The translations under genes were made by a program, and so were the position numbers. DNA of 64,000 nt from an uncultured Planctomycetia bacterium. GTDB lineage: Bacteria > Omnitrophota > Gorgyraeia > 2-02-FULL-51-18 > CAYJSE01. The DNA is taken from the NCBI GenBank assembly GCA_964372765.1, contig CAYJSE010000001.1:50755-114754 (forward strand), given 5' to 3'. Positions 9,797-45,751 of this stretch are shown here, piece after piece. Numbering within the stretch: position 1 is the first letter of the stretch; each line of letters begins with the position of its first letter. Under the pieces are notes generated by a model. That model searched no databases. It saw nothing but the letters and a program-made list of their open reading frames with translations, and was not told the origin of the DNA.

Positions 9797-9866
9797 ATTG
9801 ACAAACGAATCTCCCATGGGTTATACTTTCCCATGAAAGCCCAAAAAGTGGGGGGAAGTGGGGGAA
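9797..9866 (+). promoter_or_regulatory. Pmra-type promoter with a putative MraZ operator
   Basis: TTGACA (9797-9802), a 17/18-nt spacer, then TTATAC/TATACT. Tandem GTGGGGGAA direct repeats at 9848-9866 sit just upstream of the mraZ ATG. MraZ is known to bind GTGGG-type direct repeats. Confidence 0.55.
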
Positions 9867-9870
9867 TTCG

Positions 9871-10335: not shown

Positions 10336-10521
10336 GAGAGCTCCGGAGGGCAGTGTGTCGGGAGCGAACATGGAAAGCTTAAAGCGCCATCGGGCGCTGT
10401 TGACGAGCTGTGTGGATCTTGAGTCGATCCTGTATTTTGAGCGCGTCATGACGATCAAGAAAAAGTTTAATGATTTTGTGTTCATCACGAAGCGCGAGGC
10501 CGCAAGCCGTTTTTAGGGCGC

Positions 10522-17358: not shown

Positions 17359-17359
17359 C

Positions 17360-24024: not shown

Positions 24025-24834
24025 GTGAAACCGATGAAAAACAAAGCGAAAAAAAAGTCGTCCCAACAGGGACTGGGTTTTAAAATCGCCTCAGGGTTGG
24101 GATGGGCGTTGGCTCGTTCGCTGCCGTATCTCTTGTCGCTGGCGCTTGTGGGGATGATGCTTGGCGGCGTGGTGGCGTACGCGATGAATTCGTCCACGTT
24201 TATGCTGGAAGAAGTGCAGATTTTGAATCTGGGGACGCTCAGTCAGGAACAGGCGTTTCGATTTTGTGAGCTGCGCAAAGGCGAAAATCTGATTGCGATT
24301 GACTTGGTGGCGGTTCAGGAGGTAATCAAGAGACGGCATCCCGAATTTAAAGAAGTGCAAGTGCGGCGTGTACTGCCTAACCGTATTGAGGTGGCGCTGA
24401 AGCGCCGCACGCCGATGGCGCAAATCGCGTTCTCCCGCTACGTGCAAGTGGACCGGGATTTCGTGATCCTGCCCGGCTCCAGCGTCGAACCGTTTCGGAA
24501 TCTCACCATTCTCGAAGGAGCCCCTACGCCGAGACAGGGAATTTTTGTGGGTGTACAGCTCGGCGACGCGGCGACACGCCGAAGCTTGAAACTCTCGGAG
24601 ATCATCCGACGCTCCAATCTCTTAGGTCACCGGACGTTGACGAAGATCGATATCTCCAACGTGGAAGATTTTACAATCACGATCGATCATGCCACCGAGG
24701 TGCATCTGGGTAAAAACCATTTCATCGAACGGTTGAAATTGCTCGCCGAAACTTTAAAAACGCTGGATCTGGATAAAAGTAAAATTCGGTCCATCGATCT
24801 GCGCTTTGACGATGTGGTGATCGTGCCGCAATGA
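24025..24834 (+). CDS. ftsQ: Cell division protein FtsQ/DivIB-like (POTRA)
   Basis: Single TM then a POTRA-like region. It sits in the dcw position between ddl and ftsA. Confidence 0.65.
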   Translation: MKPMKNKAKKKSSQQGLGFKIASGLGWALARSLPYLLSLALVGMMLGGVVAYAMNSSTFMLEEVQILNLGTLSQEQAFRFCELRKGENLIAIDLVAVQEVIKRRHPEFKEVQVRRVLPNRIEVALKRRTPMAQIAFSRYVQVDRDFVILPGSSVEPFRNLTILEGAPTPRQGIFVGVQLGDAATRRSLKLSEIIRRSNLLGHRTLTKIDISNVEDFTITIDHATEVHLGKNHFIERLKLLAETLKTLDLDKSKIRSIDLRFDDVVIVPQ

Positions 24835-25844
24835 AAAAACCGGTGGCCGCGGTCGATTTCGGCCTCGACAAAATCCGCGTTTTAATCGGGTTTCAGGACG
24901 AACGCAAAAATTTAAAAGTTAGGGGAGCCGCCGAAGTGTCCCCACAGGGGTTTGAGTCGGGCCGGCTGGTTCACGAGGCCGATGCGGCGGATGCCGTGTG
25001 GGAGGCGCTAGAGAAAGCGGTGCGCCATGCCGGTGTTCGTCCCGAAAAGGTGTATTTCAACCTGGATGAGCCGAATGTCGACAGCGTGTATTGTTTTGGC
25101 ACGCGGCGGCTGGGCGGTGAGGGGCTGATTCAAGCGTCCGATGTGGCCGAAACGATGGGCGTGGCGGAACGCTTCATCAATCACTTTGAGCGCCGCATCG
25201 TTTATTCAAGCCCGGTTTATTTTTTGATCGACGGTCGTGATCCGATGACCGATCCCGTCGGTGTGAGTGGGCGTGAGCTTACGGCCAAGGTTCACTTCGT
25301 GACGGTTTCTTCCGAGCGCTTTGAGCGCTGGCAAAAGATTTTTGAACGCGCGTTTTTACCGGACGCAGTGCCGGTTTTGTCGCTAGCGGCGACATGTTGG
25401 GCCATGCTGGCGGCCGAGGAAAAGACGCAAAACCGGTTTATCGTGGATGCCGGTTCTGACTTTATGAGTCTGGGAGTTCTGAGGCCGCAGGGTGTGGCGG
25501 CTTGCCGGATTTTCGAGTCGTGTTCCGTGACGAATGACGACTGCGCGCTTCGCGCGGCTGAGATTTTCAAGGCATGGCACAAGGATTATCCGGATACGGA
25601 GGAGATTCTTGTCACCGGCGATCGTTTGAGCTTACACTCCGCGGCGTGGCCGGCGATCCCGACGCGCGCGGTATCCCCGGCCGTGATTTTGGACCTGAAC
25701 CAGTCTCGCTACGCGTCGCTTGTGGGACTTTTAGGGGTTGCGTTGGAAACGAAAGGAAAGCGCGTGTTGACTCCGACGCGCCGTCCGGAGGCTTTGATCG
25801 ATTTAAAAAGCAAAGTCAGCGCGTTTTTGGACGAGTATTTTTAA
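24831..25844 (+). CDS. ftsA: FtsA-like actin-family cell division protein (short, divergent)
   Basis: dcw position after ftsQ. The N-terminus AAVDFGLDKIRVLIG matches the FtsA/actin phosphate-1 motif. At 337 aa it is shorter than canonical FtsA. Confidence 0.6.
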   Translation: MKKPVAAVDFGLDKIRVLIGFQDERKNLKVRGAAEVSPQGFESGRLVHEADAADAVWEALEKAVRHAGVRPEKVYFNLDEPNVDSVYCFGTRRLGGEGLIQASDVAETMGVAERFINHFERRIVYSSPVYFLIDGRDPMTDPVGVSGRELTAKVHFVTVSSERFERWQKIFERAFLPDAVPVLSLAATCWAMLAAEEKTQNRFIVDAGSDFMSLGVLRPQGVAACRIFESCSVTNDDCALRAAEIFKAWHKDYPDTEEILVTGDRLSLHSAAWPAIPTRAVSPAVILDLNQSRYASLVGLLGVALETKGKRVLTPTRRPEALIDLKSKVSAFLDEYF

Positions 25845-27038
25845 ATGACCCCGATTCCAGACATACTGAAAGATTTGAAAAAAGGCCGTGTCATTGTTGT
25901 CATGGATGACGCGGATCGTGAGAATGAGGGCGACCTCGTGGTGGCGGCGCAGCACGCGACGCCGGGCATCGTGAACTTCATGGCCAAGCACGGGCGGGGC
26001 ATTATCTGCGTGCCGATGGAATCGCGGCGTCTGGAGGAGCTTGGCATTCAGTCGATGGTGGCTGAAAGCGCCGATCACTTGAAAACCGCGTGGACGGTTT
26101 CCATCGACGCTAAGCACGGCATCACGACCGGTATCTCGGCGCATGACCGTTCGCGCACGATTCATGTGTTAATGGACGCCAAGACGCGCCGGGAGGATCT
26201 GGTGCGGCCGGGGCATGTGTTTCCGCTGAAAGCCCGTGAGGGAGGGGTGCTCGTACGCGCCGGACATACGGAAGCGTGCGTGGACTTAATGAAACTGGCG
26301 GGGCTTTATCCGGCCGGGGCGATCTGCGAGATCATGAACGACGACGGCACGATGGCGCGCACGCGCGATCTCGTGCGTTTTGCCCGAAAACATCGGCTTA
26401 AAGTTTGCACGATCCGGGATCTCATCGAGTATCGGCGCCGCAAAGAGAAGCTCGTGTCGCGTGTCGTCGAGACGCGTATCACGAACGAATTTGGCGAATT
26501 TCGTCTCGTGGCCTACGCATCGGTGGTGGACAAAGACTATCACATCGCGCTCGTGATGGGCGACATTTCCAAAGAAAAGGAAGCGCTGGTGCGTGTGCAT
26601 TCGGAATGCCTGACCGGCGATGTGTTTGGATCCCAGCGCTGCGATTGCGGCGAGCAGCTGCGCGACGGGCTGTACCGCATCGCCCAGCATAAAAGCGGCG
26701 TGCTTTTGTACATGCGGCAGGAAGGCCGCGGCGTGGGACTTATCAATAAACTGAAAGCTTACCGCCTTCAGGATGAGGGCCTGGATACCGTACAGGCCAA
26801 CGAGCGGCTTGGATTTGCGCCCGATTTGAGACACTACGGCGTCGGCGCGCAGATTCTCGTGGATCTGGGCGTGCGGCGCATACGACTTTTAACGAACAAT
26901 CCCAAAAAAATCGTAGGATTGGAAGGTTACGGTCTTCAAGTGGTGGAGCGCGTGCCGCTGCATGTGAAGCCCTCGCCGCATAACCGCAAGTATCTGCAAA
27001 CCAAAAAAAAGAAGATGGGGCACTGGATTGAAGCCTAA
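25845..27038 (+). CDS. ribBA: Bifunctional 3,4-dihydroxy-2-butanone-4-phosphate synthase / GTP cyclohydrolase II
   Basis: DHBP synthase N-terminal domain (DRENEGDLV) and GCHII C-terminal domain ([15 protein letters not shown] zinc site). Confidence 0.9.
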
Positions 27039-32575: not shown

Positions 32576-34102
32576 ATGTCAACACCGAGATCCATCCTGA
32601 AATCAGCCGGCGTGATCGGCGCGTTGACCGCCGTAAGCCGCGTTTTGGGTTTTATTCGGGATCTCATCATCGCGGCCGCGTTTGGCACCGGTATAGGCGC
32701 CGAGGCGTTTGTCGTGAGCTTCAAAATTCCTAATCTCTTAAGGGATTTGGTGGGCGAGGGGGCCACGAACGCGGCGTTTGTGCCGGCGCTCACCGAGTGC
32801 CGACAAACACGTCCCGAAGATTTTTGGAAGCTCGTGAATACGCTGTTTGCGGTGATGACTGCGGCGCTGCTCGTTTTATCCGTGCTGGGCGTCGTCGGCG
32901 CGCCCTGGATCGTGCGGCTCGTGGCACCCGGTTTTATGGATTCCAGCGATCCGGAAAAATTTCCACTCACCGTACATCTCACGCGCGTGATCTTTCCCTA
33001 CATTTTGCTCATCGGGCTTTCGGCGCTCGCCATGGGCGTTTTGAATTCCCTGAAAGAGTTTACCAGTTCCGCCGCGGGCCCCTGTCTTTTAAACCTTTCG
33101 ATGATCGTGGCGGGGTTTTTTTTCGAGAAACGCTACGGTCCGATGGCGCTGGTTATTGCGGTGCTCGTGGGGGGCGCATTGCAGCTTGCCTTTCAGATCC
33201 CGCCGCTTTTCGGGCGCGGGTTTCGCTGGGCGTCACCCGATTGGCATCACCCGTCGCTTAAAAAGATCGGGAAACTCTTGGTGCCCCGGGCTCTCGGTTC
33301 GGCGGTTTACCAGATCAATGTGTTTGTGGACTCGATCCTGGCTTCGTTCGAAAAAGTGGTGGGTTTCGGGGGGCAGTCCGCGCTGTACTACTCCAACCGC
33401 CTTTTTCAACTGCCGTTGGCCATCTTTGGCGTGTCCCTGGCGCAGGCGTTGTTGCCGACGTTTTCGGAACACATGCTGCGTGGTGACGGCAAGGCGTTCA
33501 AAGAAACCTTCGCGGCGTCGGTGCGGACACTGGGTCTTGTGGTGCTGCCAGCGGCGGTAGGACTGGTCGTTTGGGCGAAGCCCATCGTGCGCATCGTGTT
33601 TCAGCACGGGCAATTTGACGCGTATTCCACCGAGATCACTTCGAGGGCTCTTTTTTTCTACGCGTTCGGGCTTTTATCCTGCTGTCTCATTAAGGTGTTT
33701 GTGAACATGTTCTATTCGATGCAGGACACGCGCACGCCGGTGAAGACGATGGTCTTTTCGGTGGCGGTGAACATCGCTTTGAGCCTGGTTTTGATGCGGT
33801 TTCTAAAAATTGGGGGACTGGCGCTGGCCTCCTCTATTTCGGCGACGCTGAACGCTGTGCTGTTGTACCGGGCGCTCAAGAAACGGTTGGGGGATCTGGG
33901 GGAAAAGGCGATCGTGGGGAGCTTCAGCAAACTGTTTTTAGTGGCGCTGGGCATGGGGGTGTTGGCTTTTTTTTATAATGCGTACGTTTTAAACACGGTC
34001 ATTCTCTCCACAACGCTGGTGCAGGCGACTGCGCTTCTCGCAGGTATCGGAATCTGCGCCGCGTTTTATTTTGGCGTTGTTTTCCTATTTCGTCTCCGAT
34101 GA
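32576..34102 (+). CDS. murJ: Lipid II flippase MurJ (MviN)
   Basis: ILKSAGVIGALTAVSRVLGFIRDLIIAAAFGTG...FVVSFKIPNLLR is the MurJ signature, with 14 predicted TMs. Confidence 0.9.
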   Translation: MSTPRSILKSAGVIGALTAVSRVLGFIRDLIIAAAFGTGIGAEAFVVSFKIPNLLRDLVGEGATNAAFVPALTECRQTRPEDFWKLVNTLFAVMTAALLVLSVLGVVGAPWIVRLVAPGFMDSSDPEKFPLTVHLTRVIFPYILLIGLSALAMGVLNSLKEFTSSAAGPCLLNLSMIVAGFFFEKRYGPMALVIAVLVGGALQLAFQIPPLFGRGFRWASPDWHHPSLKKIGKLLVPRALGSAVYQINVFVDSILASFEKVVGFGGQSALYYSNRLFQLPLAIFGVSLAQALLPTFSEHMLRGDGKAFKETFAASVRTLGLVVLPAAVGLVVWAKPIVRIVFQHGQFDAYSTEITSRALFFYAFGLLSCCLIKVFVNMFYSMQDTRTPVKTMVFSVAVNIALSLVLMRFLKIGGLALASSISATLNAVLLYRALKKRLGDLGEKAIVGSFSKLFLVALGMGVLAFFYNAYVLNTVILSTTLVQATALLAGIGICAAFYFGVVFLFRLR

Positions 34103-35391
34103 GATCAAACGCGCCCTCTGCGTACCTGCAAGCCGCGATCCGTTCCCTGCCGGCCACGCCGGGGGTTTATTTTTTTAAAGATCGAAAAGGCTGCCCCGTT
34201 TACATCGGCAAAGCCAACGCGATCCGCAAACGCGTGCAGTCCCACTTTCGGCACTGGGCGCGAACTTCCCGCGCGGTCACGAAAGAAGAGCAGATGCTGG
34301 CCGAGACATCCCGCATCGATTTTGTGCCGACGCCGACGGAGTCCGAAGCGCTGCTTCTCGAGGCGAGCCTCGTGCGCGAGCATCAGCCCAAGTACAACCA
34401 GGAACTGAAAGACGATAAAAGTTATCCGTTTCTGAAGATCACGAATGAGCGTTTTCCGAGATTGTTGGTGGTGCGAGGCCGGAAACCGGACGGCGCGAAG
34501 TATTTTGGGCCGTACACCAGCGTGTATCTTTTGCGGCAGGGCGTGCGGCTTTTGCGGCGGCTTTTTCCGATGCGCACCTGCAACCCCATTCCCGACAAGG
34601 TTTGCCTGATGTATCATATAGGGCAGTGCCGGGGTCCCTGCGTCGGCCTTATCGGCGAGAAAGAGTACGGCGCCATCGTGCGGGAACTGGAGCTCTTTTT
34701 GGACGGGCGCCGTGACGTGCTGGTAAAGAGTCTGATGCGGCGAATGCGTGAGCACTCTGGGAAGCGCGAGTATGAAAAAGCCAAACTTCTGCACGACCAG
34801 ATCCGGGCGCTTTCCGTCATCCCGCAGGGAGCCGGGCCAAAGCCGCAGGTGGACGTGCCGGCTCTGCTGCAGACGGAGCTCGGGCTCGAGAAGCGGCCGC
34901 GGCGCATTGAGGCGTTTGATATTTCCAATACATTCGGGCGCAAGGCCGTGGGTTCCATGGTCGTATTTGTGGATGGAAAGCCGGCCAAGTCCGAGTATCG
35001 GCGTTTCCGCGTGCGCACGGTGGAGGGAATCGACGATTACCGCATGCTGCAAGAGGTGCTGCGGCGTCGTTACGGCGGCACTTTGGCACGCAAGGAGGAC
35101 TGGCCGGATCTTGTGCTGATCGATGGGGGCAAAGGCCATTTGTCGGCGGCTTTGAAAGTGCGGCAGGAGCTGGGCCTTGAGGATTTAGACATGGTTTCGA
35201 TCGCCAAACAGCACGAGCACATTTTTCTTCCGGGCCAACCCGCCCCCAGGATTTTTCCGCTCAACTCACCCGTGTTGCAACTTTTTCAATATCTGCGGGA
35301 CGAAGCGCATCGTTTCGCGATCGCCTATCATCGTCACCTGCGTCGCAGGGAGTTTTTGGGAGTTTCCACCCGCAAAGGAGGCCGTGCGTGA
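34099..35391 (+). CDS. uvrC: Excinuclease ABC subunit C (short form lacking the C-terminal HhH region)
   Basis: GIY-YIG domain (PGVYFFKD...VYIGKA), UVR motif (EYEKAKLLHDQIRAL), and UvrC endonuclease domain (IEAFDISN...LIDGGKGHL). At 430 aa it stops before the (HhH)2 segment. Confidence 0.8.
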   Translation: MRSNAPSAYLQAAIRSLPATPGVYFFKDRKGCPVYIGKANAIRKRVQSHFRHWARTSRAVTKEEQMLAETSRIDFVPTPTESEALLLEASLVREHQPKYNQELKDDKSYPFLKITNERFPRLLVVRGRKPDGAKYFGPYTSVYLLRQGVRLLRRLFPMRTCNPIPDKVCLMYHIGQCRGPCVGLIGEKEYGAIVRELELFLDGRRDVLVKSLMRRMREHSGKREYEKAKLLHDQIRALSVIPQGAGPKPQVDVPALLQTELGLEKRPRRIEAFDISNTFGRKAVGSMVVFVDGKPAKSEYRRFRVRTVEGIDDYRMLQEVLRRRYGGTLARKEDWPDLVLIDGGKGHLSAALKVRQELGLEDLDMVSIAKQHEHIFLPGQPAPRIFPLNSPVLQLFQYLRDEAHRFAIAYHRHLRRREFLGVSTRKGGRA

Positions 35392-35612
35392 AAAGACTGC
35401 TCTTTCCGATCGTGATCGTATTTGTACTGCTCTATATTTTTATTCAAAGCAATACGCTGGAAATGTTCCAGGAGGATGTGCAGAAGGAGGGAGGTGCTTT
35501 GAGCTACACAAAAACCCGCTACTCGCTGCACTGGGATCGGTTTGTGGATTACTCCGAGGAGATTCCAGACAGGGTAGGACGCTTTATCAAACAGTGGACG
35601 AGAAAATTTTAA
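35388..35612 (+). CDS. Small hypothetical protein with an N-terminal hydrophobic helix
   Basis: A 74-aa ORF overlapping the uvrC stop (GTGA). No family is recognised. Confidence 0.3.
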   Translation: MKRLLFPIVIVFVLLYIFIQSNTLEMFQEDVQKEGGALSYTKTRYSLHWDRFVDYSEEIPDRVGRFIKQWTRKF

Positions 35613-35713
35613 ATTTTAATAGGATAAATATCGTTGACATAGACGATTATTCAATTATAGGATGAGTGACACGCCGTGGCACTGCGGCGGATGAAAATCA
35701 GAAGGAATTTTCG

Positions 35714-37432
35714 ATGAAGAAGTCCATTTTTGGTTTTATTTTTGTTTTCACTTTATTTCAGTTTTTACTTTCCCAGTCAGTTTTCGCGCTGAACCCGGCG
35801 ACAGGTCCCGGAACCGAACAAGAGCGTTTCGAGTCCGGCGAGAAAACAAAAGAGGTTTCGCGGCGTTTGGAAGAGGAAGCGCCGGCGGCCGTCGAGGTGC
35901 AGGATAAAGCGGAGGCGCCCGCCGAGGCCCAGCTCGAGGAAGTCCCTTTTTTTGTCGAAACGATCAACATCACCGGCAACACGGCGATTCCCACCCAAGA
36001 ACTGCGGCCGATCGCGGCGCCGCATGAGAATAAAGAGCTGCGCTTGTCCGAAGTGAAGAAGATCGCGGAGGACTTGACCGACTATTACCGTTCCAAAGGC
36101 TACATCACCAGCCGTTGTTTCATACCGGCGCAGAAGTTGGAATCAAAAATACTTGAGATTCGCGTGCTGGAAGGGAAACTGGGTAACGTCGAAGTCCAGG
36201 GCAACCGCTATTTCCAAAAAGCGAACATCTCGCGTTTTTTGAAAATTCCGCAAGGCGGTGTGATTCGGTATGAGGATTTAAAGCGCGATGTTTACACAAT
36301 GAATCTGCATCCGGATCGTGAAGTGAAAGCCGTGATTTTGCCGGGCAAAGAGCTTGGTACGTCCGATCTTCTGCTGGACGTCAAAGACAATTTCCCGCTT
36401 CACATCGGCGGTGAGATCAATAATTTTGGCACCGAGCTCACCGGCGAAGAGCGCTACAGCGTGTCCTTGCGACACAACAATCTCTTTGGGTACGATGATA
36501 TTTTTGTCAGCCGCATGCAGTTTGGCGAAGAGGTTTTTGCCGTGGGGCTGCAGTACGCGTTGCCTGTGGGGCCGTGGGACACGCAGGTGGGTGCGGCGTT
36601 TAATTATACCGACGTTTCTATCGGCGGAGATTTTTCGATTCTGGATATTGCGGGCGAAGCTTTCCGCTACTCAATTTTTTTCAACCAGCCATTTTTGGAC
36701 ACCCAGCACATCGACTTGACGTGGACCGGGTCTTTTGAATCCAAGGACATCAACAACACGATTTTGGGTCAACCCTCCAGCACCGATGATCTGCGCATGC
36801 TGCATACCGGGATCAATATTGATGAGATTGATTCGCACGGGCGGATGTTTATCGTCAACGATTTGACTTTTGGATTGGACGCGCTTGGGGCTTCCACGGA
36901 CAATGACCCGCGTGTATCGCGGCAGGGCGCCGGCGGGAGTTTCTTTAAATACAACGGTTCTTTGAACCGCATTCATCCAGTGGTTGACTCGACCACCCTT
37001 TATTTGAGGGGGACCGCGCAACTGTCGGGTGACAAGCTGGTGTCGGCTGAACAGTATGACATCGGCGGTATTTATTCGGTGCGTGGTTATCCGCAGAGCG
37101 ACTATCTGGGAGATTATGGTTATGGCGGGAGCGCGGAACTGCGCGTGCCGATGTATTTTATTCCGCGCGAGGCTGAGACTCCGTGGGGGGATAAGCCGCT
37201 TTGGAACAGCATCAATTTTGTCGGATTTTTTGACGCGGCCCACGCGACGCTGCGTAACCCAGCCGTCGGTGAAAGAGCCGAAAAAAATTCTGTGGGTGTG
37301 GGAGCCGGTATTCGCGTGGATCTCCCAAGAAACTTTACGGCGCGAGTGGAATGGGCGGTTCCGGTGGGCGATGACCCGACGGATCGCTCCAACAGTCATG
37401 TCTATTTCAGCATCGCGGGCGATCTTTTTTAA
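35714..37432 (+). CDS. Two-partner secretion outer-membrane transporter (TpsB; ShlB/FhaC/HecB family)
   Basis: Signal peptide, a POTRA-like region (FVETINITGNTAIPTQEL...), and a C-terminal beta-barrel ending in a terminal aromatic (F). It sits immediately upstream of the TpsA gene. Confidence 0.85.
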   Translation: MKKSIFGFIFVFTLFQFLLSQSVFALNPATGPGTEQERFESGEKTKEVSRRLEEEAPAAVEVQDKAEAPAEAQLEEVPFFVETINITGNTAIPTQELRPIAAPHENKELRLSEVKKIAEDLTDYYRSKGYITSRCFIPAQKLESKILEIRVLEGKLGNVEVQGNRYFQKANISRFLKIPQGGVIRYEDLKRDVYTMNLHPDREVKAVILPGKELGTSDLLLDVKDNFPLHIGGEINNFGTELTGEERYSVSLRHNNLFGYDDIFVSRMQFGEEVFAVGLQYALPVGPWDTQVGAAFNYTDVSIGGDFSILDIAGEAFRYSIFFNQPFLDTQHIDLTWTGSFESKDINNTILGQPSSTDDLRMLHTGINIDEIDSHGRMFIVNDLTFGLDALGASTDNDPRVSRQGAGGSFFKYNGSLNRIHPVVDSTTLYLRGTAQLSGDKLVSAEQYDIGGIYSVRGYPQSDYLGDYGYGGSAELRVPMYFIPREAETPWGDKPLWNSINFVGFFDAAHATLRNPAVGERAEKNSVGVGAGIRVDLPRNFTARVEWAVPVGDDPTDRSNSHVYFSIAGDLF

Positions 37433-37491
37433 TCACAACTATGCGCAGCCAAAAAAATCCAAAACCACGCTTCACCACAGGGGGTTCCTCT

Positions 37492-40400
37492 ATGTTTTTT
37501 AAATTTATTTCCACACTGCTCGTGATCACGACCACACTGACGTGGTCGGTGCCGATTTATGCTGAGGGTGAGCTCCCTAGCGGCTACGTGCCTGTGGTGG
37601 GCAGTTCCGAGTATTCCGTGAGTCCGGACGGGCTGGTGGGTAATCTGACGGCGCATGACAATGTCACGATCGGCAACTGGGAGATCTTCAATATCGGCGC
37701 TCCCAACACATTCAACGCGCTCTTGCCGGGCGCGGACAGCGCGCATCTGTCGCGTGTGGTGGGCACGGACCCTTCCTCTATATTTGGGGCCCTGAACGTT
37801 CCCCAAGGCAAATTTTTTCTCGTGAACCCCAACGGAATCTTTTTTTCATCCACGTCCCAGGTCAATGCGGCGGGACTTGTGGCCTCGACGCTGAATGTCA
37901 CCAACGAAGACTTTTTAAATAAAAATTTTAAATTTTCCGAAGCGTCGTCGGGCGCGGCGGCAGTCATTAACGCAGGGCTGATGAATATCGGATTGGGTGG
38001 CGTGGCGCTGTTGGGCGGCGCGGTGCAGAATCTGGGTTTGATCCAGGCCCGCGAGAGCAGTGTCGCGATGGCCAGCGGCAAAGAGATGACCTTGAGTTTT
38101 GACAATTCTGGGCTCATCCATGTGGCGGTGGACAAGGCGGTGGCCGAGAACGTCGTGGGAGTGGATGGGGCGGCTATTGTGGATGGCGTGTCGAATGCCG
38201 GCATTATCCGGGCGGACGGTGGTAAAGTTTTGATGACCACCGAGGCTGTGAAGGGTGTATTTGATCATCTGGTGAACCAGGAGGGTGTGATCGAGGCCAA
38301 CTCGACAGTGGTGCGCAACGGTGTCGTAGAGCTTTCGTCCAATTTTAGCGAAGGTGTGGTGGCGAGCTCAGGAACGATCAGCGCGCAAGGACTTGAGGCG
38401 GGCTTGACGGGCGGCACCATCAAGATTTCAGGTGAAAAGGTTGGGATTTTTGACGGAGAGATTAATGCCTCGGGTGACGCGGGCGGCGGGACGGTTTTGA
38501 TCGGTGGAGATTATCAGGGAAAAGGCGCTTTGCGGAACGCCGATTACACGTATGTCGGTCCCGACGCGGTAGTGAAGGCGGATGCGTTGACGGCGGGAGA
38601 CGGCGGTAAAGCGATTTTTTGGTCGGATAAAATCACGCGTTTTAACGGCACGGTTTCCGCGAAGGGTGGTGAGGTGAGTGGCGACGGCGGTTTTGTGGAG
38701 ATCTCAAGCCATGATAACTTGGTCTACCGCGGTCTGGCGTATTTGGGAGCCACGGATGGCAAGGCGGGTACCATCCTTTTCGACCCTAGAGATATTACTA
38801 TTAGCAATGGACCAGATGCCAATACCACCGGATTTACGGCAGGCACGGATAATACAGAAGCATTTGCTGACGATACCCCGTCCAGCAATACCGACAGCAC
38901 CTTTGACGTGGACAATCCGGGAGGCAGTTTTATCGGTGTGGGCAACGGCGCAACCATTGAGCTTCAGGCGAACAGGAATCTTTCTGTGACAAGCGCTTTT
39001 AATGTCGGCACGGCAACAGGTAATTCCAATGTGAATTTGATACTGCGCGCTAACAATGATATGAACATAAATGCTCCGATCACTTTGACCGGCACAGGCT
39101 CTCTTACTTTAAGCGCGGACAATAATTTAAATAACAATGGTGTCTTCACAAGCGCGGCGGCGGGGGATATCACGACCTCAACCGGCAGTGTGACAATTAG
39201 CGGCGCGGACGGCATGTCCTTGGCGGGCACCATCACCACCGCGGGCGGGAATGTTTCAATTACCAACCGTGATACCGGCGGAGGCGGGGGAGAAGATGTC
39301 ACGATTTCCGCCGCGATCAGCACAAGCGGTGGAAAGGTTACGATTAGCGCTAACGATGACGTTATTCTAAGCGGAGCCGCGGCTGATGTGACGACCGGTG
39401 GCGGTACCTATACAGTCAACGCAAATTCGGATGGTGATGCTAATGGGACTTACACCCAAAACAATGCAGGCTCGGCTGTTTCCACGACCACCGGCGCGGT
39501 TTCTATCACAGCGACTGGTCTTAGTCTCACCGGAACCATCGCCGCAGGCAGCGGCAATGTAACGCTTAAGACGGCAGCCACTGCCAACTCGATCGGTGTG
39601 GGGACAACCGCCGGCACCACGATGGATATTTCGGACGCGGAGCTTGACAATATTACAACCACCGGCACGATCGAAATCGGCGACACCGCCAACACCGGCG
39701 GCATCGTTGTCGGTGGTGCGCAGGCTTTGACTCAAGGCGCCAAAAATTTTGAGCTTATTACGGCGGGTACTTTAACTACGCAGACCAACACTTTTACAAC
39801 CACCGGCGACGTTGCGTTCACGGCCGATAACATGACTTTGGGGATCGGATTAAACGCCAATAATGTCACCTTGCAACCAGCGGCGGTTGCCAGAACTATT
39901 GCGGTGAATGATGCGACGGGATCTCTGTCTTTGACGGACGCGGAGCTTGATTTCATCACCGCGACGGGGACATTGACTGTTGGCAGCGCCGCCGCGGGGG
40001 CTATTTCTATCGGTTCGGCGGGAACTTTGACGCAGAGCAATAGTATTGAGTTCACCTCAGGCGGCAACGTGACCCTCAATGGCGGCATCACCACAACCAA
40101 TGGCGGCACTGTCACCGTCACCAACGCCGGGACGTTGAATGTCAACGCTGGTGCCGACATGAACCTGGACGGCGCCTTTTTGCAGGACGGCGCGGGGGCC
40201 TTTAATCTTTCAGCGGACATCACGACCACGAATGACAATATTCAGTTTAACGCGGTGACGCTGGGCGACGACGTGACTCTGGGCGCCGGAACCGCTTCGA
40301 TTTTGGCGATGCAGTCGGTCACGGCTGGCGCGAACAATCTGACGCTCACGGCCGATGAGATCGACCTTTTAGGGGGCGACGGCACGGTGAGCGGCAGCGG

Positions 40401-43400
40401 AGATTTGGTGCTGCAGCCGTTCACGCCCGGTTTATTGATCGATATCGGCGGCGCCGGTAACACGGCGGCGCTGGATTTGACTGCTTCCGACGGCGGCGCG
40501 CTCGTGGATGGTTTCAATAGCATCACCGTGGGCCGTGCCGACGGCACCGGCGGGATTAATTTCAGCAGCGCCATCAGTTTTTCGGATCCGATGCGTTTTC
40601 TATCGCCCTTGGGCGGTGAGATCAATGTATTTTTTGCTTTGCGCGGCGAAGATAACGCGACGCTTTTCTTTGACGGCTCAGGCGCCACGACGAATCTTTA
40701 CGACAACATTGTGACGACGGGTTTATTGATCGAAATCAGCGACAGCGTGCGGCTTTTTGCGGACGTGCTTTTGGACACGACGGACGGCGGCGGGTTTGCC
40801 GGCGATGATATCCATATCTTGGGGACCATCGATGCCGACGCGGCGGCCAACAATCGGTCGCTGACGCTCACGGCCGGTACGTCCGGCAGCGTTCTCCTGG
40901 ACGATGCCGTCGGAAGCCAAGAAGCGCTTCAAAATTTTGAGGTCACCAGCGCCGACGACGTCGATTTGAACGGCACCGTCGACACGCAGGCCGCGATTTC
41001 CATTCATGATGCGAACGCCGTGAATATAAAGGCCAACGCTGATTTAACCGCCGGCACCTCGCTTACAATCAACAACGTAACGACCGTAGACCTAGCCGAC
41101 AACGTGGACTTAACCGCCCAAAACGGTCTCTTAGACGTCGCCACCGGTGTTGGCACGATCAATTTAAGCGGCGACGCCACCACAAACATCATTGACGGCA
41201 ATGGGGATGCCCTCGTGGATTTAGCGGCCGTCACCGCCACAAACGACGTGAACCTCACGGTCAACTCCGAAGGTGATCTCAATAGCGTCTCTGTAGACAT
41301 CAATAATGGCAATTTGGATGTCAATGTTGACAATGATGATGACGGAGCCCAGGCCGGTACTTTCGGGAGCATCACGGCCGGTGATTTAAGTGTCCGCGGT
41401 TACAATGCCGCCAGCGGCGATGAGACGTTTACCTTCAACGGTGCCATTAATGTGTCGGGCGGTCTGACGCTGGGCGGTGTCGGTATTCTAACCCTAAATA
41501 ATGACGTGATGGCCGGTACTTTCTTAAGAATTGAGGACGTGGCGGTTCGGGTAGAGCTAGGCTCCGATGTTGATCTGACGGCGCTCAATGGTGACCTGTC
41601 CGTTTTTGACAACGTGACCTTGATTCAGCTAAACGGCGCCGATGGCACGACGGATATTTTAAATAGCCTGGGTGATTTTGCGTTGACTTTGGGCCCTGTC
41701 AGCTCGCTCAACAACGCGAATCTCACGATCTGTTCGGACGGCGACGTGGTTTTGGACGACCTGGATACGAACGACGGTTCTTTGCTTATCAAGGTGGACC
41801 AGGATGATGACAGCGTCGGAGCCAATTTCGGCAGCTTCGCGCTTTTGTCTTCGGGCGATCTGACCGTGAACGGCACCAGCGGCGACGACACATTTACATT
41901 TAACGACGCCGTGACAACGACGGTGGACGGGATATCACTGGACGGCAACGGAGACGTGAGTTTTGAGAGCACCGTGGATTCGGCCGGCGATTTGACCCAA
42001 ACCAACGGTGGCGGGACCACCCTGTTTAAGGATGCCGTGACGACGGATGGCGATGTCGATATCACGACGGACGCGATCACGTTCAGCGGCGCCGGGCACA
42101 TGATCATCGGCGCCGGCGGCGGTCTCGCGAAGTTAAAAGCAAATACAGGTTCTATTACGAGCGGCGGTGCTGTGGCGGACGTGACGGCGCATAGTCTGGT
42201 GGCCGACGCGGCGCAGGGCGGTGTCGGCGGACCCGCCACGGCCGACTGGCTGCAGAGCCGGGTGGACCTATTGGAAGCTGTCGGCGGTTTGGGCGGTGTT
42301 CATTTATTGAATGACGGCGCCTTGAAGATCGGCGGGATTAGCGCGCTCACGGGTGTTTTTGCTGGCGGCGGCGGAGTCGGTATCCACGCCAAGAGTCCGA
42401 TCACCGTCGATGAAGAGGTTACCGACGATGCGGGCGGCGACGTAGAGCTCGCAGCGCTGGGTGCCACGGCGGCGGATGATCTGACGCTGAACGCCAATGT
42501 GACGGCCAGCGGCGGCGATGGCAATATCGAGCTGGTGGCCGGCGATACCGTATCGATCGCGGGTGGGGTGACCGTGCAGGCTGCGAATGGCGGCAACGTC
42601 ACGATCGTTTCCGGCGAAGATTTGACGGATGACTTGTTCAATCAGGACGGCAACGCGGATGGGGATGTTCAGATGATTTTAGGTTCAACTGTCGCATCGG
42701 ATGACGGGGATGTCTCATTGGATGCCGCGAGGAACATCGATGTGAGCACCGTCACGGCAAACGCGGATTTGGACGGGGACGCGGGCGATGTCACGATGAT
42801 CGCGCGCCAGGGGGCGATCAACGGTTCCAGCGACGATGCCGACGCGGATATTATAGGAAATAACATCGGTTTAACAGCTTCAGCGGGGGGCATCGGAACT
42901 AGCACGGTACTCGATGTCTCCGCGGCCACGGCCTTGAACGCCGACACCACCAATGACAACTCCAATATCTTTATTGATTCGATTGGCAATCTACCCCTTG
43001 GTTTGGCGGACGCGGGTTCGGGTGATATTGATCTGGATTCGACCGGAAATATAACAGACGCCAACGGGGGTGCTCTGAATACCAATTCGGACGATCTTGA
43101 TTTGACAGCCGCGACGGGCATTGGAGTGGGTGACGCTCTGGAAGTGATTGCCACGACACTGACGGCCAACACAATACTCGGCGACATTATCATTGATCTT
43201 GACCCAGCCTCAGCGGGGCCGACAACGATCTTGAATGCCCGTGTCACAGGCGGAATAGGTAATATTGACATCAGCCAGCTGGCGTCGTTTACGCTATTTG
43301 TCAATGGCGTCTCGACAGTTGCCGGAAGCGTGCATGTGGATTCCATCGTCGATCTATTCATCAATGGACCGCTGGTGTTTTCAGGCGGGAATCTAGGCCT

Positions 43401-44487
43401 CACACTTTGCGCGGATTCCGACAATAACGGTACAGGAGATCTCACGATTGGCGCCGCAGCCACGGTGAACGGCGATATTGGACCTGTGACACTTTGCGGC
43501 GTGAATATCAATATTATCGGATCGATAATTTCCGGCGGGGATGTCACGATCAACGTGCTTGGGGATCTTTTCCTCGGAGTTATCAGCGCGCACTCGTTCA
43601 ATATTTTTGCCGGCGGTAACATTATCGATACCAATGGTGATACGGGTAATCTTTTTGGTGAAGTTACTTCTTCGCTGGGTGCGGGAGGATTTATCGGCAG
43701 GTTTTTTGACACGATTGATATTCTTCTCCAAAGCGGTGATCTTTTGCTTTTTGCCGGCGGCCAGAGTGACGGAGTGTCCGCCAATCTCCATGCGGGTATT
43801 CCCGGACAATTGATCATCACCAACACTCCGCCCGGTCTTGTGATTTTGAATAATATCGCGGTCGGAGGGGCGACGCTTCCGCTACTCAGCATTGGCCTAG
43901 CGACGGTTTTTAATACGATCGCGTTCCAACCGGATTTATCCGCTTTCCAGAGGCCCTTAGGGTTGCTTGCAGGGGTTATTGACTCATCGCGTGTGTCTCA
44001 GCCGCTGGTGATCGTCGATCCAGAGCAGGAACAGCGCTTGAGCCGTCGCCGTGTACCGACCGTGGTCCCTGTGGTCGAAGTGGTCCCACCCGTGGTTCCG
44101 GTGCCGACACCCGAGCTTCCACCTGCAGTCGAGCTACCCGTATTGGCTCCGGAGCTGGCGCCACGGCCAACGCCTCAGCCCACACCGACTGGATTGCAGC
44201 TACCCTTCGAGCTTCAGCCACAGCAGCAACAGCCGGTTTTGACGCCGCCGCTGTCGGGCCCACGGCTTTTCCAGCAGTCTGTCGAAGAGCAGGCTATTGA
44301 GGAAAAACCCAAAACCCAGGATTCAGAACAAGGCCGGACGGACAAGATGCGGGAATGGTGGCAGGCAAGATTTAGCGCCGGCAAGCCGGCCGGACAGCCT
44401 CTGGTTACGCCGCCTCCTTTTGGCGGAGGAAAGCTCTTCCAGCATGAGGTGGAAGAAACCCCACGCGCTGAAGACGATACTCAGTAA
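37492..44487 (+). CDS. Filamentous-haemagglutinin-like TpsA exoprotein (2,332 aa): TPS domain, beta-helical repeats, Pro-rich C-terminus
   Basis: Signal peptide MFFKFISTLLVITTTLTWSVPIYAEG. The TPS domain carries the LVNPNGIFF (NPNGI) motif at nt 37822-37839. Over 1,800 aa are Gly/Thr/Asn/Asp-rich beta-helix repeats. The C-terminus is Pro/Val-rich and ends with two LFQ(Q/H)xVEE motifs. Confidence 0.85.
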   Translation: MFFKFISTLLVITTTLTWSVPIYAEGELPSGYVPVVGSSEYSVSPDGLVGNLTAHDNVTIGNWEIFNIGAPNTFNALLPGADSAHLSRVVGTDPSSIFGALNVPQGKFFLVNPNGIFFSSTSQVNAAGLVASTLNVTNEDFLNKNFKFSEASSGAAAVINAGLMNIGLGGVALLGGAVQNLGLIQARESSVAMASGKEMTLSFDNSGLIHVAVDKAVAENVVGVDGAAIVDGVSNAGIIRADGGKVLMTTEAVKGVFDHLVNQEGVIEANSTVVRNGVVELSSNFSEGVVASSGTISAQGLEAGLTGGTIKISGEKVGIFDGEINASGDAGGGTVLIGGDYQGKGALRNADYTYVGPDAVVKADALTAGDGGKAIFWSDKITRFNGTVSAKGGEVSGDGGFVEISSHDNLVYRGLAYLGATDGKAGTILFDPRDITISNGPDANTTGFTAGTDNTEAFADDTPSSNTDSTFDVDNPGGSFIGVGNGATIELQANRNLSVTSAFNVGTATGNSNVNLILRANNDMNINAPITLTGTGSLTLSADNNLNNNGVFTSAAAGDITTSTGSVTISGADGMSLAGTITTAGGNVSITNRDTGGGGGEDVTISAAISTSGGKVTISANDDVILSGAAADVTTGGGTYTVNANSDGDANGTYTQNNAGSAVSTTTGAVSITATGLSLTGTIAAGSGNVTLKTAATANSIGVGTTAGTTMDISDAELDNITTTGTIEIGDTANTGGIVVGGAQALTQGAKNFELITAGTLTTQTNTFTTTGDVAFTADNMTLGIGLNANNVTLQPAAVARTIAVNDATGSLSLTDAELDFITATGTLTVGSAAAGAISIGSAGTLTQSNSIEFTSGGNVTLNGGITTTNGGTVTVTNAGTLNVNAGADMNLDGAFLQDGAGAFNLSADITTTNDNIQFNAVTLGDDVTLGAGTASILAMQSVTAGANNLTLTADEIDLLGGDGTVSGSGDLVLQPFTPGLLIDIGGAGNTAALDLTASDGGALVDGFNSITVGRADGTGGINFSSAISFSDPMRFLSPLGGEINVFFALRGEDNATLFFDGSGATTNLYDNIVTTGLLIEISDSVRLFADVLLDTTDGGGFAGDDIHILGTIDADAAANNRSLTLTAGTSGSVLLDDAVGSQEALQNFEVTSADDVDLNGTVDTQAAISIHDANAVNIKANADLTAGTSLTINNVTTVDLADNVDLTAQNGLLDVATGVGTINLSGDATTNIIDGNGDALVDLAAVTATNDVNLTVNSEGDLNSVSVDINNGNLDVNVDNDDDGAQAGTFGSITAGDLSVRGYNAASGDETFTFNGAINVSGGLTLGGVGILTLNNDVMAGTFLRIEDVAVRVELGSDVDLTALNGDLSVFDNVTLIQLNGADGTTDILNSLGDFALTLGPVSSLNNANLTICSDGDVVLDDLDTNDGSLLIKVDQDDDSVGANFGSFALLSSGDLTVNGTSGDDTFTFNDAVTTTVDGISLDGNGDVSFESTVDSAGDLTQTNGGGTTLFKDAVTTDGDVDITTDAITFSGAGHMIIGAGGGLAKLKANTGSITSGGAVADVTAHSLVADAAQGGVGGPATADWLQSRVDLLEAVGGLGGVHLLNDGALKIGGISALTGVFAGGGGVGIHAKSPITVDEEVTDDAGGDVELAALGATAADDLTLNANVTASGGDGNIELVAGDTVSIAGGVTVQAANGGNVTIVSGEDLTDDLFNQDGNADGDVQMILGSTVASDDGDVSLDAARNIDVSTVTANADLDGDAGDVTMIARQGAINGSSDDADADIIGNNIGLTASAGGIGTSTVLDVSAATALNADTTNDNSNIFIDSIGNLPLGLADAGSGDIDLDSTGNITDANGGALNTNSDDLDLTAATGIGVGDALEVIATTLTANTILGDIIIDLDPASAGPTTILNARVTGGIGNIDISQLASFTLFVNGVSTVAGSVHVDSIVDLFINGPLVFSGGNLGLTLCADSDNNGTGDLTIGAAATVNGDIGPVTLCGVNINIIGSIISGGDVTINVLGDLFLGVISAHSFNIFAGGNIIDTNGDTGNLFGEVTSSLGAGGFIGRFFDTIDILLQSGDLLLFAGGQSDGVSANLHAGIPGQLIITNTPPGLVILNNIAVGGATLPLLSIGLATVFNTIAFQPDLSAFQRPLGLLAGVIDSSRVSQPLVIVDPEQEQRLSRRRVPTVVPVVEVVPPVVPVPTPELPPAVELPVLAPELAPRPTPQPTPTGLQLPFELQPQQQQPVLTPPLSGPRLFQQSVEEQAIEEKPKTQDSEQGRTDKMREWWQARFSAGKPAGQPLVTPPPFGGGKLFQHEVEETPRAEDDTQ

Positions 44488-44517
44488 AGATTATTCGCTG
44501 TAACTGGCTTAAAGAGC

Positions 44518-44561
44518 TGCCGGTTTCCCAAAAAGTAATCCGGGAAATCGGCAGTTTTTTT
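44518..44561 (+). terminator. Intrinsic terminator downstream of tpsA
   Basis: A 13-bp stem (CTGCCGGTTTCCC / GGGAAATCGGCAG, one mismatch) followed by TTTTTTT. Confidence 0.7.
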
Positions 44562-44599
44562 GTTTGGGAAATGCTGCCGGCTATTCAGATAAAATTCGT

Positions 44600-44652: not shown

Positions 44653-45751
44653 GTGAAAAAAGAACTTAAGGAAAAATTGAAGGCGGCGACTGAGAAGCTC
44701 GAGGGCTTAGGGAGGTATCTTTGACGCGCCGAGACTCGAGAGGCGTATCGGGGAGCTGGAGGCGGAGATCGCGGATCCCGGCTTTTGGAATGGCGGGAAA
44801 GAGAAAGATCCGGTTATCAAGGAGCTGAAGAGTCTTAAGAGCCAGTTTACTCCATACCACGAGTTGAAAAAGATTTTGGGAGAGCTGGAGGGCCTGATCG
44901 GGATCGTGGAGGAAGCCGACACACGTTCGCTGGAACATCTCGATAAAGAGATTCGGGGGCTTGGCGAAAAGATAGAACTTTTGGAGTTTCAGCGGCTTCT
45001 CGGTGATCCCGTGGACCGGAACAGCGCCATTTTAAGCATCAATGCCGGCGCCGGCGGCACCGAGTCCTGCGACTGGAGTGCCATGCTGCTACGCATGTAC
45101 ACGCGCTGGTCCGAGGATCAGGGTTATAGAACGAGCATCATTGACATTCTGCCGGGCGAAGAGGCGGGGATAAAAAACATCACGATTTTGATAGAGGGAA
45201 ATTTTGCGTACGGTTATCTTAAGTCTGAAAATGGCGTGCACCGCCTCGTGCGTATCTCGCCTTTTGACGCCAATAAACGCCGGCATACGAGTTTCGCGTC
45301 CGTCGAAGTGATCCCCGAAGTGGAAGACGAGATTAAAATTGATGTGGATGAGAAGGATATCCGTGTGGATGTATTTCGTTCCAGCGGCAAAGGCGGTCAG
45401 GGGGTCAACACCACGGATTCCGCGGTGCGCATCACGCACCTGCCCAGCGGGCTCGTCGTGCAGTGCCAGCAGGAGCGCTCACAGCTAAAGAATCGCGGCA
45501 TGGCGATGAAAGTTTTAAAAAGCCGCCTCTATGAGCGTGCGATGAAAAAACGCGAAGCCGAAGCCCAGGCGGGTTACGCCCAAAAGGAGGAAATCGCCTG
45601 GGGTAGCCAGATTCGATCCTACGTGCTGCACCCTTACAATAAGGTGAAGGACCATCGCACGGAACACGAAACGTCGAACGCGACGGCGGTGCTGAATGGG
45701 GAGATTACGGAATTTCTGGAAGCGTATTTAAAGATGCGGGCGGCACAATGA
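44653..45751 (+). CDS. prfB: Peptide chain release factor 2, with a programmed +1 ribosomal frameshift at codon 24 (join 44653..44721, 44723..45751)
   Basis: The frame-0 [26 protein letters not shown] terminates at CTT TGA C (44719-44725), preceded by the SD-like GGGAGG. This is the canonical RF2 autoregulatory frameshift site. The +1 frame continues [13 protein letters not shown]...GGQ...SPFD. An alternative upstream in-frame ATG at 44620 lacks an RBS. Confidence 0.9.

Follow-up and report, generated by a model that had tools for sequence, protein, structure and literature searches.

Sequence analysis of a two-partner secretion locus encoding a probable surface adhesin between uvrC and prfB in an Omnitrophota-like genome

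The locus consists of two co-directional genes, tpsB and tpsA, which occupy approximately 9 kb of the plus strand between uvrC and prfB within the 64,000-nucleotide stretch of DNA that was analysed as a whole (the window). The two genes lie on the same strand with a gap of 59 nt, and the same pairing is found in the relatives L081–L088. Family membership, as judged from the sequences, supports the assignment of the locus as a two-partner (type Vb) secretion system composed of a TpsB transporter and a TpsA exoprotein. The flanking genes were identified as uvrC and prfB, as stated in an earlier reading of the sequence alone (the first-pass annotation), which had also described the rest of the window as housekeeping. 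In agreement with that description, every other scanned open reading frame (ORF) of the window with a Pfam match is a housekeeping gene, and two ORFs have no match at all. The features of the locus are listed in Table 1.

Table 1. Positions of the genes, protein regions and signals at the tpsBA locus, numbered from the first letter of the window.
Feature	Position	Strand	Description
orf74	35388–35612	+	74 aa; possible small membrane protein with a hydrophobic N-terminal helix
Sigma-70-like promoter string	35634–35663	+	TTGACA-18-TAGGAT, 10/12 matches; AT-rich gap upstream of tpsB
tpsB	35714–37432	+	Omp85-family TpsB transporter, 572 aa
Parts of TpsB			Signal peptide, aa 1–26; POTRA domains, ~aa 79–215; beta-barrel, last residue Phe
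VRGY motif, loop L6 of TpsB	37079–37090	+	aa 456–459, within SVRGYPQ (aa 455–461)
tpsA	37492–44487	+	Exoprotein, 2,331 aa; mature form ~230 kDa, pI ~4.05
Sec signal peptide of TpsA	37492–37563	+	MFFKFISTLLVITTTLTWSVPIYA, ~24 aa; predicted cleavage before EGE
Conserved N-terminal beta-helix of TpsA	37567–39555	+	aa 26–688; homologous to EtpA, HMW1 and HxuA
TPS secretion domain of TpsA	37642–38346	+	Pfam PF05860, TIGR01901
Acidic variable beta-solenoid shaft of TpsA	39556–43557	+	aa 689–2022
Diverged 155-aa duplication in TpsA	41104–41484 and 41569–41952	+	aa 1205–1331 versus aa 1360–1487
C-terminal end block of TpsA	43558–44010	+	aa 2023–2173; last beta-helix rungs, capping helix and linker
Capping alpha-helix of the end block	43879–43923	+	aa 2130–2144
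Proline-rich region of TpsA	44050–44277	+	aa 2187–2262; 29% Pro, predicted disordered
Terminal tail of TpsA	44266–44457	+	Two LFQ(Q/H)x(V)EE copies, 44266–44289 and 44434–44457
Intrinsic terminator	44511–44562	+	GC-rich hairpin then U-run, 24 nt past the tpsA stop

The ShlB/FhaC-type transporter of the first-pass annotation is borne out by the Pfam search, in which TpsB matched ShlB (7e-26; 91.8 bits, cutoff 22.7), POTRA_2 (3e-20; 72.3 bits, cutoff 24) and Omp85 (2e-11). Among solved structures, the best match to TpsB was CdiB (6wim), with an E-value of 2e-22 over aa 27–471. The VRGY motif, a hallmark of TpsB proteins (PMC5422565), is invariant in the three aligned orthologues. TpsB is identical to the NCBI protein P0267, and its orthologues are 53–67% identical, the named ones coming from Candidatus Omnitrophota. 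In a metagenome scan, the TpsB query alone returned no relatives (0), and a query made of a three-sequence alignment returned three loci.

A Shine-Dalgarno-like GGGGG is located 8 nt upstream of the ATG at 37492, none is found at the ATG at 37441, and the NCBI protein for TpsA likewise begins at 37492. Because the start is placed at 37492 on these grounds and no match to the ESPR (PF13018) was obtained with Pfam, TpsA is predicted to have an ordinary signal peptide instead of the extended one that had been proposed, and the protein is one residue shorter than the 2,332 aa originally given. TpsA is rich in Gly (13.9%), Ala (10.8%), Thr (10.7%), Asp (8.9%) and Asn (7.5%), and has Cys only at positions 1414, 1973 and 2002.

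The TPS secretion domain matched PF05860 with an E-value of 5.8e-18 (66.1 bits, cutoff 33.5) and TIGR01901 with an E-value of 4e-14 (52.2 bits, cutoff 29.1). The NPNGI motif is found at aa 112–116 (37825–37839), so that both the domain and its motif had been correctly recognized from the letters. The N-terminal beta-helix part is common to more than 100 database relatives. In a comparison with solved chains, aa 26–688 matched EtpA (8vba, 1e-57; 8cpk, 2e-52), and the N-terminal part also matched HMW1 (2odl, 2e-29) and HxuA (4i84, 6e-14). None of the Fha30, HpmA, ShlA and CdiA chains matched the N-terminal 700 aa of TpsA at E ≤ 0.01. The NPNL motif, which is confined to the FHA/HpmA family of TPS domains (PMC5422565), was absent from TpsA in a motif search. 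Based on these sequence matches and the absence of NPNL, TpsA is placed in the HMW1/HxuA/EtpA branch, which represents the second TPS-domain family. No FHA repeats (PF05594, PF13332) were detected in TpsA; PF05860 was the only family found at E ≤ 0.01, and searches with fragments were empty at E ≤ 5. The earlier term “FhaB-like” therefore holds loosely, in that TpsA is a large exoprotein of this class, and is imprecise by sequence because TpsA lacks NPNL and the FhaB repeats and belongs to the other branch.

The shaft that follows is covered by few homologues and is strongly variable between orthologues. No Pfam or NCBIfam family was found in it. An AlphaFold2 (AF2) model of aa 1150–1960 is all-beta, with a pLDDT of 81 and a pTM of 0.76. 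BLAST revealed no internal repeats in TpsA, and the sole clear internal repeat is the diverged duplication, which scored 248 as compared with 57 ± 9 in shuffled sequences. Of the beta-helical repeats described previously, the all-beta nature of the shaft is thus supported by the model, but the repeats themselves are degenerate. N-x-S/T sequons are not enriched in TpsA (34 versus 30.5 ± 4.8), giving no hint of HMW1C-type glycosylation. An antisense ORF at 42669–43892 (407 aa) matched no family and is taken to be a side effect of how tpsA is composed.

Homologues of the C-terminal part of TpsA were sought by an exhaustive profile search. The PPG of a “PPGLVxxN” motif is invariant in the end block, which is not represented in Pfam or NCBIfam but recurs in about 270 protein clusters. 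In the AF2 model of aa 1951–2126, a beta-helix that includes Cys1973 and Cys2002 is predicted with pLDDT values above 90. A marginal phmmer match of aa 2035–2122 to PGRP-SA (E = 0.04) was discounted because this segment is confidently modelled as a beta-helix. The tail comprises approximately 190 aa in all and is largely disordered in the predictions, with a predicted helix at aa 2280–2294. It has no cysteine, as none occurs after aa 2002. The LFQQxVEE motif also occurs close to the C-terminus in the proteins P0003, P0004 and P0152, and the motifs in the tail are conserved among orthologues. The C-terminal fragments matched no family in Pfam or NCBIfam. No toxin fold was found in the C-terminal part, its folded portion being a plain beta-helix.

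EtpBA(C) of enterotoxigenic E. coli has the same gene order, B then A, and EtpA (PDB 8vba, 8cpk), to which the first 690 residues of TpsA are most closely related among solved proteins, is likewise a three-sided beta-helix rod. EtpA has a conserved secretion part followed by more variable C-terminal two-thirds (PMC11463764), and TpsA is built in the same way. In contrast, the four tandem repeat modules of EtpA have only the one diverged duplication as an equivalent in TpsA, and the lectin activity of EtpA resides in its C-terminal repeat modules, which have no counterpart in TpsA. EtpA also lacks the PPGLV end block, the proline-rich tail and the LFQQxVEE motif, its alignment with TpsA ending at aa 688. 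Whereas EtpA and HMW1 depend on a linked HMW1C/EtpC N-glycosyltransferase, none is encoded at the tpsBA locus itself. HMW1/HMW2 and HxuA of Haemophilus influenzae share with TpsA the TPS-domain family, the presence of NPNG and the absence of NPNL. However, the hmw1 locus is ordered A-B-C with the glycosyltransferase gene, whereas the order here is B-A without a third gene. HMW1 and HxuA are retained on the cell by a short C-terminal segment that remains periplasmic (PMC5422565). This anchor is a small disulfide-bonded loop, unlike the long, proline-rich and Cys-free tail of TpsA.

FhaB/FhaC of Bordetella is also a TPS system, and FhaB is a very long beta-helical adhesin. It ends in a region rich in proline (PRR) plus a short conserved extreme C-terminus (ECT), which are periplasmic and control maturation (PMC4542190). 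The PRR and ECT of FhaB resemble the TpsA tail, in which a PRR is combined with conserved terminal motifs, and the likeness is one of architecture. In contrast to FhaB, TpsA has no prodomain of approximately 1,200 aa and lacks the Fil_haemagg repeats, the ESPR and NPNL, and Fha30 is not among its sequence matches.

If the pair works as its family does, TpsB and TpsA would both cross the inner membrane by the Sec pathway, and TpsB would form a beta-barrel with POTRA domains in the outer membrane. The POTRA domains would bind the unfolded TPS domain, and TpsA would be threaded through the barrel. Outside the cell, TpsA would fold into a right-handed beta-helical rod of approximately 2,100 residues, which would be very acidic (pI ~4). 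Type Vb export from this locus is predicted from the genes, and its dependence on TpsB from the family. Judging by the proteins related to it and by the lack of toxin features, we consider with moderate confidence that TpsA is most likely a surface adhesin or fibre of the Omnitrophota-like bacterium. An adhesin is the default role for a TpsA without a toxin. The locus taken as a whole is, in our judgement, likely to be a type Vb pair that exports a probable Omnitrophota surface adhesin and forms an accessory module. Knowledge of two-partner secretion is good for proteobacterial pathogens, but candidate phyla have hardly been studied in this respect. The present Omnitrophota-like genome carries a TPS pair of the HMW1/EtpA branch that is both complete and canonical. 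As a predicted surface rod of 230 kDa, TpsA is a reasonable candidate for the cell–cell attachment of Omnitrophota.

In analogy to HMW1, HxuA and the prodomain of FhaB, the tail of TpsA may possibly stay in the periplasm or in the TpsB pore and thereby tether the rod to the cell, which we propose tentatively. It is a more doubtful idea that the end block, a basic patch, the proline-rich spacer and LFQQxVEE together form an undescribed and widespread module for the retention or controlled release of environmental TpsA proteins. Were this so, the tail would be periplasmic and the rod would be held without a disulfide loop, so that the tail would be a case of functional convergence with the anchor of HMW1 and the PRR/ECT of FhaB. 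The tethered rod would then be an organelle that attaches the very small Omnitrophota cells to a host or prey. The PPGLV end block with its proline-rich tail is the practically useful result; a family model could be made from it, and it is a candidate surface-retention signal.

TpsA might instead be a non-adhesive fibre, either a CdrA-like matrix or S-layer-like scaffold or a protein for HxuA-like ligand capture, which is released or held by its tail. TpsA is related to HxuA in both sequence and structure, the Asp-rich and extremely acidic shaft (pI 4.05) would be suitable for binding cations or forming a matrix, and the shaft varies strongly between orthologues. However, neither a specific binding domain nor a loop insertion can be recognized in TpsA, and we regard this alternative as unlikely.

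A host-dependent or predatory way of life is widely suspected for Omnitrophota, which would agree with a cytolysin of the ShlA/HpmA/ExlA type that lyses or permeabilises a host or prey cell. Cytolysins are among the known functions of TpsA proteins, and they too are large and beta-helical and need no immunity gene (function table, PMC5422565). Such a role is nevertheless quite improbable for TpsA: neither HpmA nor ShlA appeared among the chains matching its N-terminal 700 aa at E ≤ 0.01, NPNL, which is common to the FHA/HpmA family, is missing, no amphipathic or pore-forming domain was detected, and the C-terminal fold is a plain beta-helix.

CdiA-CT toxins are typically polymorphic, and the conservation of the TpsA tail motifs between orthologues does not conform to this pattern. 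CdiBAI-like contact-dependent inhibition (CDI) or another form of toxin delivery, with an unrecognised C-terminal toxin and an immunity gene that is elsewhere or unneeded, is suggested by the B-A order shared with cdiBA, by the solved CdiB as the closest structure to TpsB and by the last 190 residues of TpsA, which have no known family, but it is very improbable given that a motif search of TpsA found no VENN, PT-VENN, ELYN or YD motif, that neither a toxin domain nor a repeat family of the FHA-1 or FHA-2 kind was detected, that TpsA has a TPS domain of the HMW1/EtpA type instead of the CdiA/FHA type, that the tail is predicted to be disordered except for two short helices, with 29% Pro in its core, and that the terminator and prfB follow directly, without an immunity ORF. 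The first-pass annotation had likewise noted that VENN, YD elements, a toxin domain and an immunity ORF are missing and had preferred an adhesin or exoprotein to CDI; the motif, family and fold searches of the C-terminal part agree with it, and the adhesin role itself is judged from the relatives and the missing toxin features.

The setting of the locus was compared with that in related genomes. In the closest genome found (L001, an Omnitrophota MAG), all nine flanking genes recur in unchanged order (bamD-like, lptE, holA, murJ, uvrC, prfB, secA, lnt and lysS; 37–76% identity), and uvrC directly adjoins prfB there. The tpsBA orthologues in L081 and L084–L088 have a common upstream neighbourhood of mutY/PMT/PIG-L/UDG/flavin-reductase genes, and PTPS and SDR genes lie downstream of tpsBA in L081 and L082. 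Because the pair is absent from the uvrC–prfB junction of L001 and is located elsewhere in other relatives, the comparison supports tpsBA as an accessory module at a lineage-specific position, consistent with the accessory status proposed at first sight. The pair appears to be movable, with a chromosomal site that differs from lineage to lineage.

The codon usage of tpsB and tpsA is mildly atypical: the RSCU correlation of the tps genes with the window genes is 0.78–0.81 as compared with 0.94–0.96 for three control genes. Their GC and GC3 values are unremarkable, and there is therefore no compositional support for a recent foreign origin. A search for flanking direct or inverted repeats gave only short, chance-level matches inside tpsA, and no integrase or transposase family was found among the scanned ORFs. 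The sole tRNA gene, a tRNA-Pro at 6327–6403, is far from the locus.

The strong terminator reported downstream of tpsA was confirmed, with a hairpin at 44511–44560 of −29.4 kcal/mol (z = −4.55) that none of 200 shuffled sequences equalled. The tpsA stop at 44487 is separated from the GTG start of prfB at 44653 by 165 nt, which are partly taken up by this terminator and leave no room for an immunity ORF. The −35/−10 string previously assigned to the locus as its own promoter is present, but it is only a consensus match, and the region contains seven promoter-like sites as compared with 5.9 expected from shuffled sequences, which is a chance-level frequency.

The lineage-specific segment, which is missing from the syntenic relative, also contains orf74, a small ORF absent from the first-pass annotation. 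It has no match in L001 or L081–L083, belongs to no Pfam or NCBIfam family and is an uncertain gene prediction. An ORF in an overlapping frame (35384–35665, 93 aa) was rejected because its translation is not protein-like; its Pfam search was empty, and orf74 is the more plausible of the two. The GTG start of orf74 overlaps the TGA stop of uvrC, and its GC content is 0.449 (z = −4.7 relative to the window genes).

The interval 35666-44487 is filled by two long co-directional ORFs, tpsB and tpsA. TpsB matches the Pfam families ShlB (7.3e-26), POTRA_2 (2.9e-20) and also Omp85. A signal peptide is present, loop 6 carries the motif SVRGY, and the last residue is Phe. Among proteins with a solved structure, TpsB is closest to the CdiB transporter 6wim (2.4e-22, aa 27-471). 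The NCBI protein for TpsB (P0267) comes from a deposited 188-kb contig. A GGGGG string lies 8 nt 5' of the tpsA ATG at 37492, and none precedes the alternative ATG at 37441; the 2,331-aa NCBI protein for TpsA (P0001) likewise starts at 37492. TpsA matches Pfam TPS over the gathering score (5.8e-18) as well as TIGR01901, and carries NPNGI at aa 112-116. Because of the family matches and motifs of both ORFs, we assign the locus as a bona fide TpsB/TpsA pair, in agreement with the first-pass annotation of a two-partner secretion (TPS) transporter and exoprotein. The "extended signal peptide" described there is an ordinary one of approximately 24 residues, with no ESPR match in the Pfam search. 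The locus is real, well formed and ordinary, and its kind is already known.

Coordinates of features in the window and in TpsA
Feature	Position	Strand	Details
tRNA-Pro (GGG)	6327-6403		
RNase P RNA, bacterial class A	7613-7954		221 bits
238-aa ORF	9772-10488	-	
154-aa ORF	9871-10335	+	
dcw cluster	10522-27038	+	
MurC/MurB ORF	20717-23101	+	794 aa
ftsA-like gene	24831-25844	+	ribBA begins at 25845
uvrC	34099-35391	+	430 aa
74-aa ORF	35388-35612		GC 0.449 (low)
tpsB	35714-37432	+	572 aa; ATG 35714 is best start; P0267 end-to-end identical
tpsA	37492-44487	+	2,331 aa; stop 44487
Terminator	44511-44560	+	hairpin -29.4 kcal/mol, z = -4.55, U-run after
prfB	44653-45751	+	start 44653
prfB frameshift site	44719-44725	+	CTT TGA C
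452-aa ORF	58228-59586		
TpsA end block	aa 2023-2173		invariant PPG inside PPGLVxxN
TpsA tail			basic patch RLSRRRV; 76-residue region, 29% proline; two copies of LFQ(Q/H)x(V)EE

EtpA, from enterotoxigenic E. coli, aligns with residues 26-688 of TpsA at 1e-57. The first 690 residues also match the HMW1 secretion domain (1.6e-29) and HxuA (5.5e-14), and no Fha30, HpmA or CdiA chain at E<=0.01. The NPNL motif, which is common to the FHA/HpmA family only and is missing from the second family including HMW1 and HxuA (PMC5422565), was not found in TpsA. Fil_haemagg repeat families were detected neither in the whole protein nor in fragments at E<=5. Therefore, the designation "FhaB-like" holds only in a generic sense; as to family, the sequence places TpsA in the HMW1/HxuA/EtpA branch. 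Unlike EtpA and HMW1, the locus has no linked glycosyltransferase gene, and the N-x-S/T sequons of TpsA are not in excess (34 versus 30.5 +/- 4.8). Lectin modules in tandem, as in EtpA, are also missing.

Database relatives of TpsA (1,353 at E<=1e-5) cover mainly aa 1-700, and the shaft (aa 689-2022) is covered by only a handful of them. In the shaft, which is strongly acidic (pI about 4.05), the residues G, A, T, D and N are abundant. Modelled with AF2 from a six-sequence alignment, aa 1150-1960 are all-beta with short strands (pLDDT 81, pTM 0.76). In the second model (aa 1951-2331, 30 sequences), a beta-helix reaches approximately aa 2126 (pLDDT >90) and is capped by an alpha-helix (aa 2130-2144). 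Past this cap, the chain is mostly disordered apart from two short helices (aa 2177-2184 and aa 2280-2294). The repeats reported in the first-pass annotation are not regular: BLAST gave no internal repeat, and only one duplication stands out inside the protein, a diverged 155-aa module (aa 1205-1331 versus 1360-1487) scoring 248 against 57 +/- 9 in shuffles.

The one mildly novel element in the locus is a recurrent, unmodelled C-terminal end block with a conserved Pro-rich tail. The end block aligns to the C-termini of several giant proteins that are otherwise divergent, and no model in Pfam or NCBIfam represents it. A profile search against 1.84 billion representative proteins gave 445 clusters at E<=1e-3, 270 of them at E<=1e-10. 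Among the carriers listed, a median of 59 residues separates the end block from the C-terminus, and of the 71 carriers that exceed 1,000 aa, 35 show a TPS-like N-terminus in a single-sequence search. A subgroup adds a Pro-rich tail of 130-170 residues; the LFQ(Q/H)x(V)EE motif also lies close to the C-terminus of the relatives P0003, P0004 and P0152.

From the family, both proteins would be exported by Sec, and POTRA-TPS recognition would bring TpsA to TpsB, through whose barrel it would be threaded to fold outside the cell. HMW1 and HxuA keep a short C-terminal segment in the periplasm, which anchors the protein to the cell (PMC5422565), and in FhaB the prodomain, which includes a PRR and the extreme C-terminus, is likewise retained (PMC4542190). 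By analogy, the TpsA tail might be held in the periplasm or pore and tether the rod, a tentative proposal. Unlike the HMW1 and HxuA anchors, the tail has no disulfide loop, which counts against a tether.

An adhesin or surface fibre remains the best reading of TpsA, from its relatives and the absent features of contact-dependent inhibition (CDI), as the first-pass annotation had favoured. A ShlA-type cytolysin is unlikely because of the TPS family of TpsA and its plain beta-helical C-terminal end. A CDI system is very unlikely, because VENN, ELYN and YD motifs were not found in TpsA, its last 330 residues match no family of any kind, no toxin-like fold was found for the C-terminal part, and the terminator between the tpsA stop and the prfB start leaves no space for an immunity gene; each of these absences that had been noted earlier (VENN, YD, toxin domain, immunity ORF) was confirmed. 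At the sequence level, the analysis establishes which families the two proteins belong to, that the modelled parts of TpsA are beta-helical, and that CDI features are lacking.

The terminator is as strong as had been described. The proposed promoter of the locus (TTGACA, 18 nt, TAGGAT; 10/12 matches) does exist as a string, but sites matching this well are no commoner than in shuffled sequence (7 seen versus 5.9 expected); its place in the AT-rich gap upstream of tpsB, not the statistics, makes it plausible. In prfB, a Shine-Dalgarno-like GGGAGG precedes a classical programmed +1 frameshift site, and CTT TGA C is also present in the orthologue of L001, a Candidatus Omnitrophota MAG.

Among the other scanned ORFs with a family match, the window is housekeeping, as had been stated (glmM-like, lepA, lepB, pgsA, plsY, gpsA, the dcw cluster, rib genes, lolCD-like, mcsAB, clpC, mlaEFD and ispD), and all family-matching genes lie on the plus strand. 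The locus is preceded by bamD-like, lptE, holA, murJ and uvrC and followed by prfB, secA, lnt and lysS. L001, the closest genome in the species-representative collection, has these flanking genes in the same order (37-76% amino-acid identity); prfB directly follows uvrC there, and tpsB, tpsA and the 74-aa ORF are absent from the junction. Those TpsB orthologues whose source is named belong to Omnitrophota. Six other contigs carry orthologous tpsBA (TpsB 53-67% identical) in a neighbourhood different from that in the window. Contigs L081 and L084-L088 share upstream mutY-like, PMT, PIG-L, DUF6580, UDG and flavin-reductase genes; on the downstream side, L081 and L082 carry PTPS and SDR genes. 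Because of its absence from the L001 junction and this other neighbourhood, the TPS module is an accessory unit within the clade, at a site specific to the lineage; it may have been inserted here or lost in L001. In codon usage, tpsB and tpsA follow the window's genes less closely (r = 0.78-0.81) than three controls do (0.94-0.96). Their GC and GC3 are normal, and a search at the locus turned up neither flanking repeats nor mobility genes.

Several TpsB orthologues (P0269, P0273, P0277 and P0279) are ~780 aa long, with a ~200-residue insertion between the signal peptide and first POTRA that the window TpsB lacks. In L082, DUF6290 (80 aa) and a 92-aa ORF directly follow the orthologous tpsA (P0003) at 14957-15470; they resemble a toxin-antitoxin pair more than a CDI immunity gene and have no counterpart in the window. 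The metagenome contigs L085 and L086 have an extra 902-aa TpsA-like gene (6371-9079) upstream of tpsB besides the giant tpsA downstream, and thus two cargo genes for one transporter.

The 74-aa ORF starts with a GTG that overlaps the stop of uvrC, and a hydrophobic helix lies at its N-terminus; it has no family match and is absent from L001 and the other tpsBA loci. The short uvrC encodes GIY-YIG and RNase H-like endonuclease domains and no C-terminal HhH part, and that of L001 is similar (410 aa). No Pfam family was found for the 452-aa ORF between clpC and mlaE (E<=1e-4) or for the 238-aa ORF. All other long minus-strand ORFs are nested within plus-strand genes. The 238-aa ORF overlaps the 154-aa ORF and lies immediately 5' of mraW, where GC is lower (0.469). 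The dcw cluster contains mraW, ftsI, murE, murF, mraY, murD, ftsW, murG, murC-murB, ddl, ftsQ and a weak ftsA-like gene, which runs straight into ribBA; no ftsZ follows ftsA in the window. Its 794-aa ORF, with MurC-type Mur ligase domains and MurB (FAD_binding_4 and MurB_C), is an apparent murC-murB fusion.
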